A DNA stretch of 64,000 nt from positions 390 through 64,389 of the forward strand of contig CAZRPT010000073.1 in the NCBI GenBank assembly GCA_964601985.1, written 5' to 3'. The translations under genes and the position numbers were made by a program. Shown one piece after another: positions 1 through 43,361 of the stretch. The notes under the pieces are model-generated. The model searched no databases, was not told where the DNA came from, and was given only the letters and a program-made list of their open reading frames with translations. Source of the stretch: an uncultured Verrucomicrobiota bacterium. Lineage in GTDB: Bacteria > Verrucomicrobiota > Verrucomicrobiia > Limisphaerales > J093. Positions within the stretch are counted from its first letter, which is position 1; each line of letters opens with the position of its first letter.

Positions 1-3000
1 GCGTCTCCAAGGGAACCCACGTTTGCAGGTCCGCGGAGGCTTCCAAGGTGTAGGTGGCTTGCACCTCGCCGTAGAGTTCGAGCTGAAATTGCCCCAGCCC
101 GTTGAATCCCACCGGCGACAAGGTCAGCGGCGCGGAGACGCGGGTGAGGTAGGCGTTGACGTTGTCCAACCCCCACTCGGCGGGCACGGTGACGCCCCGC
201 GGGAGGGCGTCGGCCAGCCGCACGTTCACCGCGCCCGGGGCGGGCGTGAAGAGGCCCTCGCCGCTGAAGTTCACCACCAGGGAATCCGCCGTGTGGGAGA
301 ACACGAACAACAGGTGGTAGATCGCGTCGCCGCCGGGAAAGCCGAGGGTGTCGTTGGCCGCGGCGTCGGCACGCGGCGGGTGGTGTCCTCCGGGATAGCC
401 GCCCGGATAGGCCTGGCCGGGCCCGGGATCATCCGGCGAGCCGTTGTGAAAGGTGGTCCGCAGCAGCGTCAATCCGCCGGCCAGGTCCATTTGAAAAAGG
501 CTGGGCGCGTCGGGATCGTTGCCCACCCAGGGACCGGCCACGACGAGGTCGCATTCGATCGCCGCCAGTGTGTGCGGCGGAAGGTCGTCCAGCCGGAACG
601 TGACCTGCTGATTGCCGAACGTGCCCAGGAGGGGATCGTTGCCCGCGGGGGTGCGGGTGATTTGGTCCGCCGACCACGCGGAGCCCGCGCCGTCGCTGAA
701 GTCGTTCTGGTAGATGCGGTCGCCCAGGTTGACGTCGCTGCCCGGAATCACGGTCAAGTCCTCCAGCACCGGCGTGATGCCGGGCTGGAAGCTTTGCAAC
801 TGGACCTCGATTTCGAGGTAGCGGCCGGGGGGCGTGGAACGCAGCGGCAGGTCGTTGAAGGCCACCTCCCAAGCGGACCAGCTCTCCTGGTCGTTCGAGC
901 TGCGCACGCGGACCTTGAGGGCCGTGTCCTCGGGTTCCCGTCCGGTCCAGCGGATCCGTTCCCACGGCACGTTCCGGAAGCCGGAGTCGTGGCGCATCGT
1001 CCAGATGCCCAGGCGGGTGGTGGCATTGCGGACAATTCGTCCGGTCATGTCGCTGTAACCGTAATGGGTGGTACCTGTCAGTCGCTTGCTGAGGTCAATC
1101 GTGTCGGTCAGGGGATTGATGCGGTGGATGTATTCGTCACCATTATTGACCACCCACACCTTGCCGGCCTGGTCCACCGCCACGCCGGTGGGCACTTTGC
1201 CCACCGCGATGGTGTCCTTGACGGTTCCGTCCGGCGCGAAGCGGGTCACCGTGCCGGGGCCGGAATCCGCCGTCCAGATGTCGCCGTCATCGGTGACGGC
1301 CACGCCCCGGGACTGATATTTGCCCGGGACGGTCCACTCGACGGTTTCCGTGGCGAGATCCAGCCGGCTGAGCTTGCTGTCCTGCCAGCCCGAGACGTAA
1401 AGCTTGCCGCGATCGCTGAGGTCCAGCCCCAGGCCGTAAACGAAATGAGGAAACCCAACGACCCGGAAGGAATCGTCCGCCGGGTCCAGCCGCAGCACGT
1501 GCCGCTTGTTCTGTCCGGAGGACCACACGATGCCGGAGCGGTCAATGACCGCCCCGTAGGAGGTGTGGTTGACGGAGGAAACGTCAATCACCTTCATGAT
1601 CTGGCCGGAGCCGCCGTCAATGTAATAGAAGGTCTTGGTGCCGTAGGTGCCCAGCCAGAGGTTGTTGAGCACGTCCACCGCCAATCCCCGCGGGCCGGGG
1701 CTCCAGTAGTCGTTGGCGTAGGGGGTGTTGGGATCGCCGGGGATGTGGGTGCCGGCCATCAGGCCCCGCCGGACGGGATCCTGAAGGTTGACCTTGTAGG
1801 TGACATCGCCACCGTAGGGGGTGTGGGGATCGCCCGGCGTGTGCAACCCCTCGTGTCCCGGCAGCACCGAGATTTCGTACAAGACGCATTCGTCCTCGCC
1901 CCAGGGAAGCAATTCCGTGCCGGTGATGTCGCCGTCGCCGTTGAGGTCCATCGAGGTTTCAATGATGCCGTTGCCGTTGCGGTCAATGAACTGGCCGTTG
2001 AAGCGCAGGCCGATCTTGATCACCGTGGCGGTGACGCGGTTGGCCACCCAGCAGTTGCCCAGCAGGTCCACGGTGGTGCGGGAGGGATTGCCCTTCCCCT
2101 GGGGGCCGGTGCGGTAGCGGCCCAGCTCGCGCCCGGTGCGGGTGTCCACGAGGGAGACGGTGCCCTCGTTCGAGTTGGGGACCCAGAGGAACGGGAGGGC
2201 ATTGGGCTGGGGCTCGAGTTGCAGTTGATCCAGCGCGCTCCGCGCCTCGACCCCCACCATGCGGCCCAGCTCGAAATCGCCGGTGGTGGTGAAGGTGCGC
2301 GCCGCGGGCGCCGCGGGCGGAAGGTTCGCGGTCAAGACGGCCTTGACGGCGTCCGCTTCCCGGGTGTCGGCGCTCCGGGCGGTCAGCAACGCCTCCACCC
2401 GCGCTCCCGGGCCGATGCCGGGATCCAACGTCACCTCAATGCGCAGGGGAAACAAACCGCCCGGCGCGAGAAACGGCGAAACCCAGCCGTCCTGCGTGGC
2501 GGCGTCGGTGATGTCGAGGCTTTCCGCCGCGTCCAACCGATACCGCCAAGTCACGCCGCCTTGCAGGCTGCCGTCGCGACCGTTGCCGCTCCGGTCCTCC
2601 ACGAGCGAGCCGCTGCCCTCGTTCAACGGCCAGTAGCCGAGCAGTCCCTCCGCGTCTCCGGGCGGCGGCGCGTGCATCAAATCCCGCACTTCCACCGCGC
2701 TCAACGGGCGGTTCCAGACGCGGACCTCGCGGATCAGGCCGGGGAAATTGTTGCCGTTGCAGCAGGCCTCGCCGCCGATGCGCACCTGCTCATAGCCCAC
2801 GTAGTCCGTCTGCACCGGCGCGCTCAACACCGCCTCGCCGTCCACGTACAGCGTGGCGGTTTCGCCGTCGCAGGCGACCGCCAGGTGGTACCACCGCCCG
2901 ATCTCGGCGGACGCCTCGACCCTGGGGCTGCGCGCACACCCGCCGGGCGGCTTCAAATTGATGCCCCACCTGCCGTCGTGGAGCACCACCCCCCAGTCCC

Positions 3001-4552
3001 GGCAATCGCCCATGCCGCCGATCACGGTGTGCCGTCCTCCCGGCAACGCCGAGGGATTCGCCCACGCCTCGACCGTCCACCGGCTGCCCGGCGGGCATTC
3101 CCCCACGTTGACCATCCCGCTGACACCGTCGAACCGCAACTGCCCCACGGGCGCCAGATAACGAACCGCGGCATTCGGCGGCGCGGGCGTTCCCGTGAGG
3201 ACAAACTTGCCGGCGGCGTTGCCGACATTTTCCAAAAACACCTCATACACCGCCACGCCCCCCGGCGGCAGCGACTGGAAACGGGTCTGCGCCACGGCGT
3301 CCAGATTGAAGACGCGTTCGCCGGCATAGTTCCAATCGCCCTCGTTGGCGATCATCAGATCGGAACGCATCTTCAACGCCACATGCGTCACGGCCCGCAC
3401 CACATCCTCGGTGGCAAGAAGCCCCCCTGAGGTGACCCGCACCTCGGTGGAAACGGAGGAGCCCCCGGGCGCGGAAGGCAGCGCCGTGACAAACACGGTG
3501 ATGATTTCGCCCTCACCGGCCGGCAGCACTCCGGTCCGGTAACCCTCCACGCCGCGCACGGCCTCGGTGATGTCCGTGGCCGCTTCACCGGCCCCGACTT
3601 GATAACGGATGCGCCAGCCGCTTTCCCCGCTCTCGGCGGCCCGCACCGTCAACGACTGGGAAGACTCGGACGCGTCATTCTCCACCTTGACCTGAAAGAC
3701 GGCGGTTTCCGTGTTGGCCACCGTCTGCTCGACCACCTGATTCCCCTCCGGCGTGTCCTGATACTCGTTGTCCCCCTGGAAGGGACGAACCTCCTCCGTG
3801 CCCGCCCGGATCAAGGCATCCGCGGGCAGGGACTTCACCTCGCTCATCGGCACCAACGTAAACCAGTCGAAATCGCCGTTGAACTTGGTGAACCGCAGCG
3901 TCACCGGGCCGCCGGGCAGCTCGAACACCTGCAAACTGCCGTCCGCGTTGCGCGCCGGTTGCAGCCCGTTGTTGCCCCAGCCGCCCGGCGCCGGCCCGCG
4001 CGCGCTGGCCAGGGGCACGACCGTCTGCTCCTCGCTGCCCGCGCCTTCGGTGACCCGGGCCAGATCACCGCCCACGACGGCCCCTTTGCTCCCGTGGGAA
4101 CAAGCCGACACCAGGGTGTATTCACCCGCCGGGATTTCACGGGTGTAATTGTACCACTCCCCTCCGCCGGTCCAGCCGACCTTGTAATTCACCGTCACCA
4201 CGAAACCGGGCCGCTCCTTCCCCAGCGCGCCATTGAGGTTGTCGTTCATCGGCACGTTCGGCTCCTCCCCTTCCCGGTAGAGATCCGATGCGCTGTCTCC
4301 GTCGTGATAATCCACCTCGGCCACCGCGCCCAATCCCTGATACTCGTCGCCGGTATAGGGCATGGTGTTGACCTCGGACACCGATTTGCCCCCGTCATAG
4401 TCGAAGTGTTCCGCTTCAATGGTGAAACTGGTCGCCGGCAGATCACCCAGCTCCACGGCCGAAAGCGGCGAGGCAAACCACCCCAGCGCCATCCCCGCGA
4501 TCAGAACCGAAAAACCCACCGGGATTCCCTGCTGTTGTTTGGATGTTTTCAT
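1..4552 (-). CDS. Large secreted multidomain lectin-like protein (signal peptide, CBM6/35-like module, LamG/concanavalin-like domain, Ca-binding loop, beta-propeller repeats); 3' end runs off the window
   Basis: Absent from the ORF track because no stop lies inside the window. The minus-strand frame is stop-free from ATG 4552-4550 down to nt 2 (about 1517 codons, hand translation). N-terminus MKTSKQQQGIPVGFSVLIAGMALGWFASPLSAVELGD (signal peptide). FTIEAEHFDYDGG...GEYTLVSAC...GDFDWFTLVP (CBM6/35-like). LRFDGVSGMVNVG...WYHLAVACDGETATLYVDGE...FPGLIREVRVWNRPLSAVEV (LamG_3-like, about nt 2678-3145). DRNGNGIIETSMDLNGDGDITG (Ca-binding loop). Repeated blades SRGVAVTDDGDIWTAD / VPTGVAVDQAGKVWVVN (about nt 1100-1700). 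Last residues ...YTLEASADLQTWVPLET at the window edge. Confidence 0.8.
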   Translation of the reverse strand, partial: MKTSKQQQGIPVGFSVLIAGMALGWFASPLSAVELGDLPATSFTIEAEHFDYDGGKSVSEVNTMPYTGDEYQGLGAVAEVDYHDGDSASDLYREGEEPNVPMNDNLNGALGKERPGFVVTVNYKVGWTGGGEWYNYTREIPAGEYTLVSACSHGSKGAVVGGDLARVTEGAGSEEQTVVPLASARGPAPGGWGNNGLQPARNADGSLQVFELPGGPVTLRFTKFNGDFDWFTLVPMSEVKSLPADALIRAGTEEVRPFQGDNEYQDTPEGNQVVEQTVANTETAVFQVKVENDASESSQSLTVRAAESGESGWRIRYQVGAGEAATDITEAVRGVEGYRTGVLPAGEGEIITVFVTALPSAPGGSSVSTEVRVTSGGLLATEDVVRAVTHVALKMRSDLMIANEGDWNYAGERVFNLDAVAQTRFQSLPPGGVAVYEVFLENVGNAAGKFVLTGTPAPPNAAVRYLAPVGQLRFDGVSGMVNVGECPPGSRWTVEAWANPSALPGGRHTVIGGMGDCRDWGVVLHDGRWGINLKPPGGCARSPRVEASAEIGRWYHLAVACDGETATLYVDGEAVLSAPVQTDYVGYEQVRIGGEACCNGNNFPGLIREVRVWNRPLSAVEVRDLMHAPPPGDAEGLLGYWPLNEGSGSLVEDRSGNGRDGSLQGGVTWRYRLDAAESLDITDAATQDGWVSPFLAPGGLFPLRIEVTLDPGIGPGARVEALLTARSADTREADAVKAVLTANLPPAAPAARTFTTTGDFELGRMVGVEARSALDQLQLEPQPNALPFLWVPNSNEGTVSLVDTRTGRELGRYRTGPQGKGNPSRTTVDLLGNCWVANRVTATVIKIGLRFNGQFIDRNGNGIIETSMDLNGDGDITGTELLPWGEDECVLYEISVLPGHEGLHTPGDPHTPYGGDVTYKVNLQDPVRRGLMAGTHIPGDPNTPYANDYWSPGPRGLAVDVLNNLWLGTYGTKTFYYIDGGSGQIMKVIDVSSVNHTSYGAVIDRSGIVWSSGQNKRHVLRLDPADDSFRVVGFPHFVYGLGLDLSDRGKLYVSGWQDSKLSRLDLATETVEWTVPGKYQSRGVAVTDDGDIWTADSGPGTVTRFAPDGTVKDTIAVGKVPTGVAVDQAGKVWVVNNGDEYIHRINPLTDTIDLSKRLTGTTHYGYSDMTGRIVRNATTRLGIWTMRHDSGFRNVPWERIRWTGREPEDTALKVRVRSSNDQESWSAWEVAFNDLPLRSTPPGRYLEIEVQLQSFQPGITPVLEDLTVIPGSDVNLGDRIYQNDFSDGAGSAWSADQITRTPAGNDPLLGTFGNQQVTFRLDDLPPHTLAAIECDLVVAGPWVGNDPDAPSLFQMDLAGGLTLLRTTFHNGSPDDPGPGQAYPGGYPGGHHPPRADAAANDTLGFPGGDAIYHLLFVFSHTADSLVVNFSGEGLFTPAPGAVNVRLADALPRGVTVPAEWGLDNVNAYLTRVSAPLTLSPVGFNGLGQFQLELYGEVQATYTLEASADLQTWVPLET

Positions 4553-4752
4553 GACACAAACTTTCTCGTCTCCGGCGACTCCCCTTTCCCTCCGCGCGCC
4601 AACCGCCCTCCGCGCCGCGTTTCCTTCATCACCGCCGCCGCCGGCGCTTCAGGGGGAAAAGATGGACTTGCTATGACCGGCACCAGACAGCACCCCACCC
4701 TCCCCGTCAAGAAGAAAGCGCCCCGACGCCGCGCTCCACACCGCGAAAAAAC

Positions 4753-4768
4753 GAATCCCGAATTCCGA
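4753..4768 (-). repeat. Copy of the short T-rich 'TTCGGA/CGGGATTC' repeat (plus strand GAATCCCGAATTCCGA)
   Basis: 15/16 identical to GAATCCCGAAATCCGA at 56841-56856. Lies in the spacer downstream of the minus-strand GlcF-like gene, inside an A/T-rich patch (4743-4780). Confidence 0.5.
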
Positions 4769-4983
4769 AAAAATCGCGCTCCCTCCCGGAGCCACCGGGA
4801 TGACAAGGCAGAGTCCCCTCCCCTCGCGACGCGGGCTGGCAGCGTGACGTTTCGCGGCGTGGCACATCGCGAAACAACCCATTCTCCCCGCAACCGCCGA
4901 GGTCCGGAGGCGGCGGACCTCGCCGGCCGGGGGCGGCCGGCTCGCCGGCGAAAACGGCCGGCGGCAACCGCCGCGACCGTCGG

Positions 4984-6297
4984 TCATGGGGTTCCGTCCC
5001 CCGTTTCCTGGCGGTAGGCCTCGGCGAGGAGGGTCATGGGGTGGACCACCCGCACGGAGCTGCCGACGGCCTTCAGGCCGTTGACCAGTTGCAACTGACA
5101 GCCGGTGTTGCCGGTGGCCACGATGGGGGCGCCGGTTTTCTGGATGTTTTCGATTTTGCGGTCCAGGAGCCGGTTGGCCATCTCGGGCTGGATGAGGTTG
5201 TAAATGCCCGCGCTGCCGCAGCACCAGTTGCTCTCGGGCAGCTCGACGAGGCGCAGGTGGGGGATGGCCCGCAACAGCTCGCGCGGCTCGTTCACGATGC
5301 CCTGGCCGTGACTGAGGTGGCAGGATTCGTGATAGGTCACCACCAGTTCCGGCGCGCCGTTGGTCCTCGGGGGACGCAGGCCGATCTCCGCCAGCCACTC
5401 GTGCACGTCCTTCACCTTGCGATCCCACAACTCCGCCCGCTCCCGCCATTCCGGGTCGTCCTCCAGCAGCCGCCCGTAATGCTTGAGATGCGAGCCGCAA
5501 CCGCCGGCGTTGGTGATGATGGCGTCGAACTGGTCGGGCGGAAATTGGGCGAGATTCTTCCGGGCCAGATCGCGGGCCAGCTCCAGCTCGCCGTTGTGGG
5601 CGTGCAGCGAGCCGCAACATTGCTGCTGGGCGGGGGTGAACACCTCGCAGCCGTTGGCCGCCAGCACCTCGACGGTGTCGCGGTTGACTTCGCTGAAGAT
5701 GAGGTCCTGCGCGCAACCGGTGAGCATGGCCACCCGGAACCGCCGCCCGCCCTTGGCGGGGGTGACTTCCGGGATGAGCTGGGCGGAGAATTTTTTGGGG
5801 ATGTCGGGCGTGAGCGATTCGAGCTCGCCGAGCCGTTTGGGAAACAGCTTCAAAATCCTGCTGGCCCGCAGCAGCCGTTGCAACCCGAGAGCCTGATACC
5901 AGCGCATCAAGCGCCCCAGGAACAGCAGTCGGCGCAAATCCATGAAGAGCCACTTCACGGTGAACCAGCGGATGAGACGCCGCTTGGGGGTGTTCAGCAC
6001 CCCCGTCCGCTCCACCTCCGCCCGGGCGCGCTCGAACAGCTCGGCGTAATTCACCCCCGCCGGACAGGCGCTGGTGCAGGCCAGACAGCCCAGGCAGAAA
6101 TACATCTCCTCGGCGAACACGCGGGTCGGTTCCAACCGTTGATCGGCGATGGCCCGCATGAGCGAGATGCGTCCCCGGGGGCTGTGACGCTCCAGTTTGG
6201 TGAAGTCGTAGGTCGGGCAGGTCGGCAGACACAGACCGCAGTGCATGCACTGCTGGACCACCGAATAATCAAGGTTGGCGAGATAGCTGGCGTTCAT
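4984..6297 (-). CDS. GlcF-type Fe-S oxidoreductase subunit (two 4Fe-4S ferredoxin motifs plus two CCG cysteine-rich domains)
   Basis: ORF 4984..6306. CMHCGLCLPTCPTY and CLGCLACTSACPAG cluster motifs. QQCCGS and NWCCGSAG CCG motifs. The track start at 6306 is TTG; the first ATG is at 6297 (MNASYLANLDY...). No glcD/glcE neighbour. Confidence 0.8.
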   Translation of the reverse strand: MNASYLANLDYSVVQQCMHCGLCLPTCPTYDFTKLERHSPRGRISLMRAIADQRLEPTRVFAEEMYFCLGCLACTSACPAGVNYAELFERARAEVERTGVLNTPKRRLIRWFTVKWLFMDLRRLLFLGRLMRWYQALGLQRLLRASRILKLFPKRLGELESLTPDIPKKFSAQLIPEVTPAKGGRRFRVAMLTGCAQDLIFSEVNRDTVEVLAANGCEVFTPAQQQCCGSLHAHNGELELARDLARKNLAQFPPDQFDAIITNAGGCGSHLKHYGRLLEDDPEWRERAELWDRKVKDVHEWLAEIGLRPPRTNGAPELVVTYHESCHLSHGQGIVNEPRELLRAIPHLRLVELPESNWCCGSAGIYNLIQPEMANRLLDRKIENIQKTGAPIVATGNTGCQLQLVNGLKAVGSSVRVVHPMTLLAEAYRQETGDGTP

Positions 6298-6348
6298 GGA
6301 CCCCAAAACCGTCCGGGCGCGGCAACAACCGCCCTTCGTCGCGTCCGG

Positions 6349-8056: not shown

Positions 8057-8521
8057 TCAGGCCAAAAAGGCGCGGGGAGTCACTCGAAGTTCGGAACGAT
8101 CCCGCGGTCGGTCGGCTTCGGAAGCGGGCCGGTCGGACGGAGCGGACGCCGCCGGGCGCAGGCCCAGCAAATCCGCGCGCAGCCGTTGCCGGGCGGCCAG
8201 CTCCGCGCGCCAGACGGGCGACAGGGCCCGGACCGGCGGCGCAACCGTCGGCGTCGCAAACACGGGCGCGGGCGCCAGATAGAGCGGCAGGCGCAACGCC
8301 AAAACAAGCAGCCAGGCCACCCCCAGCCCGACCCACGCCGGGCGGACGGGGCTCATTCGCTCGCGGAGCGCCGTGCGCCACCGCGCGAGCCCGGAGGCGG
8401 CCTTCGTCCGCCGGGACGCCGCGTCACGCCGCAACGCGGCCACCTGCCGGTGGCGGATCGCGTCCAACCGGGGCAGCGCCGCGCGATGCCGCGCCAAAAT
8501 CAATTCACGGGGCGTTTTCAT
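8057..8521 (-). CDS. Putative anti-sigma factor (small single-pass membrane protein)
   Basis: 154 aa. ATG 8521 overlaps the sigma-factor stop by 17 nt. Cytoplasmic helical N-terminus, then TM PAWVGLGVAWLLVLALRLPLYL. The call rests on position only; there is no zinc-finger anti-sigma motif. Confidence 0.45.
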   Translation of the reverse strand: MKTPRELILARHRAALPRLDAIRHRQVAALRRDAASRRTKAASGLARWRTALRERMSPVRPAWVGLGVAWLLVLALRLPLYLAPAPVFATPTVAPPVRALSPVWRAELAARQRLRADLLGLRPAASAPSDRPASEADRPRDRSELRVTPRAFLA

Positions 8522-9086
8522 GACAGGGAGCTTGCAGCAATGTCTTCAATGCCTTGCGCGCGTAATGCAACCGGCTCTTGACCGTGCCCACCGGCGCGCC
8601 GGTGACGCGGCCGATTTCCTCCAGCGAAAACCCTTCGAGAAAATGCAGCAGCACCACGGCGCGATGCTCCGGCGTCAGCTCCGCGAGGGCGCGGTAAAAC
8701 TGCTCCCGCGCCTCCTTGCGGATCAGCCATTCGTCCGGGGCGGGATCGGTTTCGTCCGCGCACGACGCTTCGCGGTCCTCCGCGTCGAGCGATTCCCACG
8801 CCCTCGCGGGACGCTGTTTGCGCCAGTGCTGACGGCACTTTTGGTGGGCAATGCCAAAGAGCCACGCGCCGAACCGTTCCGGGTCCCGCAACGAGCCGAT
8901 GTGCCGCGTCGCCTGGGCGAAGGTCTCCTGCACGAGGTCCAGGCTGGTCTGTTCGTCGTGCAACAGCTCTTGCAGCCAGGCGAACAGCGGAAGCTGGTAC
9001 CGCCGGAAAAGCGCGTCCCACGCTTCGGGATCACCCGCCCGGGCTCGCTCCACGGGCAGCAGTTCATGGCCGGTCGCTTCGCGCAT
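8505..9086 (-). CDS. ECF-type RNA polymerase sigma-70 family factor
   Basis: Region 2 (DLVQETFAQATRHIGSLRDPERFGAWLFGIAHQKCRQHWRK) and region 4 (LTPEHRAVVLLHFLEGFSLEEIGRVTGAPVGTVKSRLHYARKAL). Likely start is ATG 9086 (MREATGHELL...) rather than the track start at 9191. Confidence 0.85.
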   Translation of the reverse strand: MREATGHELLPVERARAGDPEAWDALFRRYQLPLFAWLQELLHDEQTSLDLVQETFAQATRHIGSLRDPERFGAWLFGIAHQKCRQHWRKQRPARAWESLDAEDREASCADETDPAPDEWLIRKEAREQFYRALAELTPEHRAVVLLHFLEGFSLEEIGRVTGAPVGTVKSRLHYARKALKTLLQAPCHENAP

Positions 9087-9139
9087 CGTCACCCAGAGGA
9101 ATGCACGAGCCGGCGAAAGGTTCAATGCCGCCGGCAAAA

Positions 9140-9165
9140 AACGCTCCCCCCCGCCCGATGACTTC
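9140..9165 (-). promoter_or_regulatory. Candidate ECF-type autoregulatory promoter (GAAGTC-N16-CGTT on the minus strand)
   Basis: Minus strand reads ...gggtGAAGTCatcgggcgggggggagCGTTtttt, about 55 nt upstream of the sigma ATG. Resembles the GAAC-N16/17-CGT class only loosely. Confidence 0.2.
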
Positions 9166-9264
9166 ACCCGGAAAACGCGGGAAGCGCGCACCCGGATGCG
9201 CCTCCCAAGCCACGGGGTTGTTCCGGCGGACGAAAAACCGGGAAAAGCGGTTGACAGGCGGAGC

Positions 9265-35038: not shown

Positions 35039-39190
<4,152 letters not shown>

Positions 39191-39242
39191 GGTATCGGAA
39201 ACTTAAAGGGGTTGAGGTCGTTTCGAGTTCCGCGGCCGGCCG

Positions 39243-43139
<3,897 letters not shown>

Positions 43140-43313
43140 GGTCGGTAAAATCAGGCGGGCCGACGCCCGGTCGGCCGGGTAAAGGGCGAAAGACAAAACC
43201 ACGCCGGCGCCCCCCTCTCGGGACGGGGTTCCACCGGCTCTCTTGACTGTTGTGCCGTCCCGGCGCGCCGGGCGCCGCGGACGGTGGGGTATTGAATACT
43301 CAGCATCGGAAAG

Positions 43314-43344
43314 GCGGCGGGAACGGAACGACCGATCCCGCCGC
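43314..43344 (-). terminator. Attenuator-like hairpin in the rplL-rpoB spacer
   Basis: GCGGCGGGA (minus strand) pairs with TCCCGCCGC, a perfect 9-bp stem with a 13-nt loop, about 20 nt after the rplL stop. Analogous in position to the partial terminator known from the E. coli rplJL-rpoBC operon. Confidence 0.4.
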
Positions 43345-43361
43345 TTCCTGACGGAAGTCGA

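Follow-up and report, generated by a model that had tools for sequence, protein, structure and literature searches.

Propellers of the NHL/YVTN type are known from proteins as different as the surface-layer fragment of Methanosarcina mazei (1L0Q), with a tandem YVTN propeller and PKD, the PknD sensor (1RWI), the TRIM-NHL proteins and the streptogramin B lyase Vgb (2Z2N, 2QC5; PF24684). Described counterparts of other modules considered here are the putative carbohydrate-binding protein BACOVA_03559 from Bacteroides ovatus (4DQA), the CBM6 structures 2Y8K and 1W9S, and the choice-of-anchor domains (NCBIfam) associated with PEP-CTERM and exosortase. Large secreted proteins combining carbohydrate-binding modules (CBMs), LamG domains and propellers are routine in Verrucomicrobiota. 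We analyzed a 64,000-nucleotide stretch from an uncultured Verrucomicrobiota bacterium (assembly GCA_964601985.1, contig CAZRPT010000073.1, positions 390 to 64,389), hereafter called the window. The first 4,552 positions of the window carry, on the minus strand, nearly all of a gene for such a protein, which is the subject of this report.

The 1546-residue product is an ordinary, uncharacterized member of widespread families. The gene may be useful for cataloguing three widespread, unnamed modules: a propeller-plus-sandwich core of about 520 residues, a domain that we designate by its WGLDNV motif, and a C-terminal domain ending in RFYR. The core is more than 50% identical from Verrucomicrobiota to Methanobacterium. 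In our judgement, the protein is probably a secreted, modular extracellular protein that binds, and possibly processes, a glycan or another polymer.

A minus-strand gene beneath two plus-strand reading frames

Machine translation of window positions 1-4552 on the minus strand yielded 1517 codons with zero stops. Over the same 4552 nucleotides, the three minus-strand frames contain 0, 39, and 22 stops and the three plus-strand frames 54, 1, and 48. The GC content of the open minus frame by codon position is 0.66/0.49/0.86, i.e., a third-position value (GC3) of 0.86, and the confident genes of the window show a similar pattern, e.g., 0.64/0.45/0.87 for the gene at 4984..6306. Because an in-frame TGA lies at 4651, 33 codons upstream of the ATG at 4552, and neither ATG, GTG nor TTG occurs between them, this ATG is the sole possible start. 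A public metagenome contig in ENA carries the same gene, called there as a hypothetical protein of 1546 amino acids (P0001; homologous proteins are numbered in this way throughout). The two copies differ at four of the 4552 nucleotides, resulting in the single substitution V384A. As P0001 comprises 1546 residues and is otherwise identical, the window, which holds 98% of the gene, misses only the final 29 residues and the stop codon; the residues beyond the left edge end with ...RKLTANPLLLTDPGSSTTPFRFYRAVLVP. The minus-strand gene of this uncultured Verrucomicrobium is genuine. The original prediction had read it by hand from ATG 4552 to the window edge, and both the machine translation and the public gene call agree with that reading; the motifs it had quoted (FTIEAEHFD, GYWPLNEGSGSLVEDRSGNGRDGSLQGGVTW, DxNGDGxI, and YTLEASADLQTWVPL) are all found in the minus-frame translation. 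It had also described the domain combination as belonging to no family that could be named. Indeed, no named family exists, but full-length orthologs are known and present in many metagenome-assembled genomes (MAGs) of Verrucomicrobiota, and the gene had already been called publicly.

The only long open reading frames (ORFs) listed over positions 1-4552 are two on the plus strand, at 23..3430 and 3599..5017, the latter of which also runs across the intergenic gap into the end of the adjoining minus-strand gene. That these two ORFs are the real genes, with the minus frame open by chance, has practically no probability, even though both are long in the ORF list. GC content peaks at codon position 1 and not at position 3 in both of them, which is the signature of an antisense frame, and their products are low-complexity sequences rich in Arg, Ala and Gly, in which Pfam finds no family at E ≤ 1. 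The minus frame, by contrast, has hundreds of homologs, domain matches and confident structure models. We thus rejected the plus-strand ORFs as genes on the grounds of codon-position GC, composition and the homologs of the minus frame; they are spurious, as had been proposed. The ORF list leaves out reading frames that continue beyond the source sequence, and long antisense ORFs are typical of DNA with 66-70% GC; together these account for the blind spot, which arises from the ORF lister and from high-GC antisense ORFs and holds no biology. In high-GC DNA, a real gene running over the edge can thus be replaced in an ORF track by long antisense shadow ORFs, for which allowing open-ended ORFs, combined with a GC3 test, is the cure.

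The conserved core and the modules around it

We modeled the protein in two parts, residues 1-760 (model A, mean predicted local distance difference test (pLDDT) 90.2) and residues 746-1546 (model B, pLDDT 83, predicted TM-score 0.73). Foldseek was run on the whole models, and the match lists were dominated by LamG domains for model A and by propellers for model B. Since the largest or commonest fold filled these lists, the CBM6-like, WGLDNV and C-terminal domains are left without a fold assignment.

The center of the protein is a propeller followed by a small beta-sandwich. For the propeller, the Pfam family SGL (PF08450) scores 35.6 bits over the whole protein against a cut-off of 26.3, with the best stretch covering only profile positions 188-230, and NHL (PF01436) scores 30.7 bits against a cut-off of 20 in two stretches; the YVTN-repeat model TIGR02276 stays below its cut-off (19.2 versus 27.85 bits). 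The stand-alone homolog P0065 reaches 59.6 bits (E = 4.6e-16) with SGL. Sequence matches of the core in the PDB comprise Pizza/PknD, TRIM-NHL, 1L0Q and Vgb. For model B, in which the pLDDT of the propeller is mostly above 90, Foldseek returned 1L0Q (E = 2e-17), the Vgb lyase (TMt about 0.74) and a designed seven-bladed protein (TMt 0.84). The multi-blade propeller of the original prediction is therefore borne out by both the curated profiles and the fold matches. From the model, we infer seven blades with a 1+3 closure, in which the invariant HYGYSDMTG stretch would form the inner strand of the last blade.

Two consecutive EF-hand-like loops are inserted into the second blade. The second loop, DLNGDGDITGTE (residues 869-880), fits every position of the DxNxDGxIxxxE consensus, whereas the first, DRNGNGIIETSM (residues 857-868), fits in part. 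The residues D857, R858, N859, G862, T866, S867, D869, D873, G874, I876, and E880 are each conserved in 90% or more of 61 family members, and the segment appears in the model as a confident non-regular loop. Pfam detects neither a dockerin nor an EF-hand in the protein. The DxNGDGxI loop noticed earlier is thus present and well conserved across the 61 homologs, and its consensus suggests that the double loop may bind Ca2+. A lineage-specific insert of about 30 residues further downstream in the second blade (residues 902-931) is found in P0002 and is absent from P0006 and the stand-alone homologs; it resembles a local duplication (HTPGDPHTPYGGD ... HIPGDPNTPYAND). In the post-propeller sandwich, W1184, W1202, R1217, S1219, W1225, and W1228 are invariant in the 61-member alignment. 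Invariant polar residues also occur at the inner-strand entries of successive propeller blades, namely R825, R955, H996/Y999, H1036/Y1039, R1082, and H1163/Y1164/Y1166. This succession of Arg, His and Tyr residues would therefore create one asymmetric basic and aromatic pocket at the central channel.

A search with residues 745-1517 found at least 830 proteins, most of which match only the core of about 520 residues, at 50-59% identity. Stand-alone core proteins of 525-605 residues exist, among them P0065 (601 residues, 57% identical). Two invariant motifs, scanned against 185,579 species-representative genomes, yielded 252 relatives of the core, mainly in MAGs of Verrucomicrobiota and Planctomycetota (Pirellulales, Phycisphaerae, Sedimentisphaerales, and Brocadia). 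Other carriers are Methanobacterium, Calditrichaceae, Aegiribacteria, Blastocatellales and one cultured member of the Anaerohalosphaeraceae, and several MAGs encode multiple paralogs. The partner domains of the core vary and include LamG_3, CARDB, DUF11, PKD, dockerin/cohesin, tails of the type IX secretion system (T9SS) type and PEP-CTERM, which implies an extracellular location for the core family. Core homologs carry automatic names only; those given by JGI are "streptogramin lyase", "YncE", and "YvrE". Such names are likely over-annotations derived from a propeller match at the COG level, as the scores fall below the curated cut-offs. We found nothing in the literature on the core family or on the FYR-type C-terminal domain described below.

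Between the N-terminal module and the core lie two immunoglobulin (Ig)-like beta-sandwiches, the second of which houses the LamG_3 domain. Segments homologous to the first occur in relatives of about 900 residues. In the whole-protein scan, Pfam returned no match in this segment, CARDB included, which leaves its CARDB identity unconfirmed; of the Ig/CARDB-like stretch originally proposed, only the Ig-like sandwich is supported by the model. The counterparts of residues 395-479 and 673-760 are contiguous in P0099, P0102, P0084, P0093, P0098, P0127, P0128, and P0163. Because both halves thus form one uninterrupted unit in the relatives, the LamG_3 domain is, by these alignments, a nested insertion in the second Ig-like domain. 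A direct BLAST comparison of the first Ig-like domain with the spliced halves of the second was not significant (E = 0.31).

The LamG_3 domain itself is complete, in accordance with the original prediction. Laminin_G_3 (PF13385) matches residues 489-622 over profile positions 16-150 of 151, with 82.3 bits against a cut-off of 27.6 (E = 5.4e-23). The model shows its jelly-roll fold with a pLDDT above 90, and Foldseek matches of LamG and pentraxin structures agree with it: the best match to model A was 4DQA (E = 1e-14), followed by the LamG domain of PAPP-A, a trans-sialidase lectin domain, domain 4 of AbnA and pentraxins (TMt about 0.7). A second LamG entry motif had been reported downstream as an orphan that is not followed by a full domain. 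This motif, GYWPLNEGSG...GGVTW (residues 636-672, nucleotides 2537-2647), lies inside the LamG_3 span, and residues 630-672 form confident strands with a pLDDT of 88-96. According to the sequence alignment, the equivalent motif of 4DQA, GLALYYKLD...DATGRINGT, comes immediately after the LamG body and is the last part of the chain. Given the confident strands and the end of the 4DQA chain at this motif, we assign the supposed second entry to the final strands of the LamG domain itself, which rules out a remnant of an orphan second domain.

The N-terminus resembles a signal peptide, as had been noted, with lysines at positions 2 and 5, a hydrophobic core that peaks at about 2.0-2.3 on the Kyte-Doolittle scale over residues 10-27, and an A-x-A-like LSA|VE site. 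The pLDDT is below 50 over residues 1-26, as expected of a leader, and the orthologs P0002 and P0006 have similar leaders. The following module is all-beta with a pLDDT above 90 in model A and is 40-64% identical to segments of about 45 Verrucomicrobial proteins of 1200-1400 residues, which usually contain two tandem copies near the C-terminus and, in some cases, PA14/GLEYA. P0007-P0049 make up a Verrucomicrobial family of about 1200-1400 residues with an N-terminal lectin-like region and tandem CBM6-like copies, all annotated as hypothetical. Pfam, in which the CBM_6 cut-off is 28.9 bits, gave no match to residues 1-236 even at E ≤ 10, and none to CBM_6 when the entire protein was scanned at E ≤ 1. 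With a profile built from the module, weak but specific matches were obtained to the CBM6 structures 2Y8K (E = 0.0047) and 1W9S (E = 0.014), spanning about 150 positions. In addition, residues 681-902 of P0050 are a 33% identical copy of the module, in which Pfam identifies CBM_6 at residues 782-864 with 36.3 bits. On account of these two observations, we accept the designation "divergent CBM6-like" for residues 38-236 as the best reading of the sequence, in which the first strand is followed by some 60 additional residues; this reading stops short of formal family membership. The CBM6/35-like module proposed earlier holds in this weaker form, i.e., with profile-level likeness and a copy above the threshold but no direct Pfam match.

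What had been described as a beta-sandwich tail does consist of beta-sandwiches after the propeller, but these are three separate modules: the sandwich of the core, the WGLDNV domain and the C-terminal sandwich. A search of a 1.84-billion-protein library with the WGLDNV domain of about 190 residues matched 1887 representative clusters with a limit of E ≤ 0.001 and 1137 with one of E ≤ 1e-10. It occurs singly, repeated, in giant proteins, or in small proteins made of a signal peptide, the domain and PEP-CTERM. Pfam and NCBIfam provided no name for it in eight members, in which only flanking PEP-CTERM signals were found. In 19 of 151 WGLDNV-domain proteins (P0001, its orthologs and unrelated proteins of 2000-3200 residues among them), the domain has a sandwich of about 74 residues behind it. 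The 17 aligned C-termini share an invariant W...F.R, usually RFYR, in the last dozen residues. A similar ending closes the separate CBM6-like/PA14 family, and 67 of the 321 proteins fetched have [FYW][FY]R within their last 14 residues. Only a weak DUF3999 match was obtained by Pfam and NCBIfam for the last 143 residues of P0001 at E ≤ 10. The protein ends with ...RFYRAVLVP, with no hydrophobic tail, and matches none of the known sorting signals PEP-CTERM, T9SS C-terminal domain and LPXTG. A profile search with the 17 C-terminal domains gave only 51 matches, mostly short fragments and one of them named, and says little about how widespread the domain is. Neither a WGLDNV domain nor a credible FYR ending was found in other genes of the window. 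An IPTL-CTERM signal read by eye in P0186 was not supported by NCBIfam and was dropped.

Since the RFYR-ending sandwich occupies the position of PEP-CTERM after the WGLDNV domain, a role in sorting or anchoring suggests itself. From this positional argument, we consider it a tentative and rather improbable idea that the sandwich is an undescribed sorting or anchoring domain of Verrucomicrobiota, forming a mobile cassette with WGLDNV.

Table 1. Coordinates of the gene, its predicted modules and adjoining features in the window (aa, amino acid positions)
Feature	Position	Strand	Basis or remarks
Protein-coding gene, first 1517 of 1546 codons	1..4552, start ATG 4552-4550	minus	stop-free frame, GC3, P0001 gene call, unique start
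Predicted Sec-type signal peptide, aa 1-32	4457..4552	minus	MKTSKQQQ / hydrophobic core 10-27 / SPLSA|VE; no lipobox Cys
Divergent CBM6-like beta-sandwich, aa 38-236 (about 200 aa)	3845..4441	minus	FTIEAEHFD ... GEWYNYTR ... GDFDWFTLVP
Ig-like beta-sandwich 1, aa 243-392	3377..3826	minus	eight strands predicted at a pLDDT of about 90-95
Ig-like beta-sandwich 2, N-terminal half, aa 395-470	3143..3370	minus	strand pattern parallels Ig-like 1
LamG_3 (concanavalin-A-like), aa 471-672, nested in Ig-like 2	2537..3142	minus	PF13385, Foldseek
Ig-like beta-sandwich 2, C-terminal half, aa 673-745	2318..2536	minus	contiguous halves in relatives, model
Core part 1: short N-terminal lead and seven-bladed NHL/YVTN-type propeller, aa 751-1171	1040..2302	minus	Pfam, PDB profiles, model, Foldseek
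Two consecutive EF-hand-like loops DRNGNGIIETSM-DLNGDGDITGTE, aa 857-880, blade 2 insert	1913..1984	minus	presumed Ca2+ site
Lineage-specific insert of about 30 aa, aa 902-931	1760..1849	minus	alignment gap relative to P0065, pLDDT <50
HYGYSDMTG, invariant, aa 1163-1171	1040-1066	minus	interpreted as closing inner strand of the final blade
Core part 2: post-propeller beta-sandwich, aa 1172-1270	743..1039	minus	six strands, kept with the propeller in all core homologs
Unnamed WGLDNV beta-sandwich, aa 1279-1470	143..718	minus	homolog clusters, alignment with PEP-CTERM proteins
C-terminal beta-sandwich, first 45 of 74 residues (aa 1473-1546)	2..136	minus	six strands in model; ends ...TPFRFYRAVLVP outside the window
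Intergenic region, 430 bp, upstream of the gene	4553..4983	minus	terminator-like hairpin inside
GC-rich hairpin GCTCCGGGAGGGAGC and T-run GCGATTTTTT	4792-4778	minus	in the gap that separates the large gene from its GlcF-like neighbor
GlcF-like Fe-S/CCG protein gene	4984..6306	minus	between the ECF module and the large gene
ECF sigma gene	8505..9191	minus	upstream, same orientation
Shadow ORF, 1135 aa	23..3430	plus	GC peak at codon position 1 (0.87), Ala/Gly/Val/Arg-rich, no Pfam match
Shadow ORF, 472 aa	3599..5017	plus	GC at position 1 of 0.78, Arg 14.8%, no Pfam match

Proposed function and genomic context

As a secreted binding protein, the gene product would be exported by the Sec pathway through its signal peptide and would act outside the cytoplasm. 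The CBM6-like and LamG modules, held out on the Ig-like spacers, could tether it to a carbohydrate or another polymer, and the propeller core would supply a conserved activity at a single site, which may be binding or possibly catalysis. A central-channel pocket lined with Arg, His and Tyr and stabilized by Ca2+ would suit an anionic ligand. The C-terminal WGLDNV and RFYR cassette might retain or target the protein at the cell surface, and the gene would be transcribed alone and not as an output of the sigma factor module discussed below. We count the carbohydrate-linked neighborhoods of some orthologs (P0006, P0004, and P0005) in favor of glycan binding. Several observations weigh against this interpretation. 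Pfam CBM_6 fails to match the N-terminal module directly, and the central pocket was placed from sequence positions relative to predicted strands, not from coordinates. Core-only homologs exist in methanogens and anammox bacteria, with neighborhoods unrelated to carbohydrate use; these organisms are not polysaccharide degraders. The best fold matches mix structural or binding proteins (the S-layer protein 1L0Q, the PknD sensor, and TRIM-NHL) with an enzyme (Vgb), and because both kinds are present, the fold alone cannot separate binding from catalysis. Finally, the two terminator-like sites in the intergenic gap are not above chance (1.0 ± 1.2 in shuffled sequences).

The propeller core might instead be an enzyme analogous to propeller-fold beta-eliminases, a lyase or hydrolase whose substrate would be an anionic polymer or a small molecule, with the CBM6-like and LamG modules as substrate-targeting appendages of the kind known from multimodular carbohydrate-active enzymes. 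An identity of 50-59% across domains of life is very strong for an extracellular protein, and the many invariant charged and aromatic residues are blade-specific and located at the inner-strand entries. SGL exceeds its cut-off in both the window protein and P0065, the nearest folds include that of the Vgb lyase (TMt 0.74), and some orthologs reside in glycoside-hydrolase or sugar-transport neighborhoods. Ulvan lyases of the families PL24 and PL25 have His/Tyr/Arg sites on seven-bladed propellers, which we also count for an enzyme. However, no propeller polysaccharide lyase or lactonase appears among the top 50 fold matches, no known catalytic motif could be aligned, with the Vgb models failing badly, and a conserved metabolic neighborhood is lacking; moreover, the methanogen homologs resemble adhesin-type surface proteins with CARDB and DUF11. 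Catalysis thus seems to us a minority possibility, in which the core, conserved across domains, may represent a new enzyme family. Far less probable still, to the point of being hardly credible, is a streptogramin B lyase of the Vgb type or a related antibiotic-resistance enzyme. The JGI label "streptogramin lyase" on several homologs, weak matches to Pfam Vgb_lyase and NCBIfam VgbA/VgbB and the structural likeness to 2Z2N and 2QC5 speak for it, but the scores are far from the curated cut-offs (PF24684, 31.0 versus 50 bits; NF000022, 18.9 versus 600; NF000096, 13 versus 600), which effectively rules out this identity. The sequence likeness amounts to blade-level repeats over about three blades, and a secreted modular protein of 1546 residues with seven blades, a presumed Ca2+-loop insert and an extra sandwich contrasts with the cytoplasmic Vgb of about 300 residues.

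The genomic context was compared at eight loci (P0001, P0004, P0005, P0006, P0140, P0150, P0096, and P0132), among which no neighbor gene is conserved. P0004 and P0005 adjoin GFO/IDH/MocA oxidoreductases and an FGE-sulfatase, and P0006 sits among GH172, GH38, and GH36 genes together with a sugar ABC transporter. As no neighbor is conserved, the context gives no functional lead beyond these loose carbohydrate ties of three orthologs. In the window, the minus-strand segment 6349-9191 upstream of the gene encodes an extracytoplasmic function (ECF) sigma factor, followed by an ORF of 154 residues and one of 562 residues with a predicted N-terminal membrane segment. Pfam has no match in either ORF, which could be an uncharacterized anti-sigma or sensor pair. 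That the large gene is a regulated output of this sigma/anti-sigma module, as an effector of surface signaling or envelope stress, would fit its position downstream of, and co-oriented with, the sigma factor, the 154-residue ORF and the 562-residue membrane-type ORF, but we regard it as improbable. The GlcF-like gene and then the 430-bp gap with a terminator-like hairpin intervene, and an ECF sigma gene is found near none of the orthologs P0004, P0005, and P0006 (three of three loci). The link is therefore positional only: the gene does lie downstream of the module in the same orientation, as had been pointed out, but no functional tie follows from it. A scan of the gap itself (4553..4983) for sigma-70-type promoters gave no match.

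The remaining genes of the window were surveyed by the sizes of their ORFs and by C-terminal sequences. Judged in this way, ribosomal-protein operons, a secY-sized ORF, EF-G, L7/L12, and EF-Tu appear to extend over about 16400-48100, with a gene pair of the size of rpoC and rpoB at 35039..39202 and 39243..43361, and an RND efflux operon appears to be present as well. On the same basis the remainder looks like housekeeping, in agreement with the earlier view of the large gene as the one accessory surface gene of the window.

Comparison with described systems

The window protein shares modules with several described systems, each of which it departs from in the arrangement or the details of the module. 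Its N-terminal module has in common with CBM6 (2Y8K, 1W9S) the "IEAE.F" first strand and the "G.W..Y....aG.Y" pattern, but it comprises about 200 residues instead of about 125-140 and has an insertion of about 60 residues after the first strand. What would be the position of the conserved ligand-binding Asn of CBM6 reads Asp in the window module (GDFDWF). The top match of the LamG_3 domain in both fold and sequence is 4DQA (profile E = 1e-13), which shares the trailing "GL..Y.KLD..G...D..G..nG" strands that end the LamG domain. Whereas the LamG domain follows an Ig-like domain in 4DQA, it sits inside an Ig-like domain in the window protein.

Like the choice-of-anchor domains, the WGLDNV domain directly precedes PEP-CTERM in P0231, P0246, P0262, and P0268, and in other proteins it directly precedes the RFYR-ending sandwich. 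It matches no curated choice-of-anchor model, however, and unlike proteins of the PEP-CTERM system, the window protein lacks PEP-CTERM itself as well as a transmembrane tail and any T9SS-type domain.

For the propeller, the strongest sequence matches in the PDB are the PknD sensor 1RWI, the Pizza designs and TRIM-NHL (E = 2e-14 with the single sequence and 3e-35 with the profile). These have six near-symmetric blades, in contrast to the seven differentiated blades of the window core with their blade-specific invariant residues. Vgb shares the NHL-clan propeller and weak blade-level sequence similarity; it is a small cytoplasmic enzyme, whereas the window protein is secreted, to judge from its leader, and modular, and the catalytic residues of Vgb cannot be aligned. 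The comparison thereby exposes the "streptogramin lyase" labels on relatives as over-annotations. The best match to the core as a whole is 1L0Q, over 474 columns that take in its propeller and its PKD domain, with a TMt of 0.67 and a profile E of 8e-18. In both, an extracellular seven-bladed propeller is followed by a small beta-sandwich. Their identity is only 13%, the double EF-hand-like insert and the HYGYSDMTG strand belong to the window core, and the sandwich that follows the propeller in 1L0Q is unlike that of the window protein.

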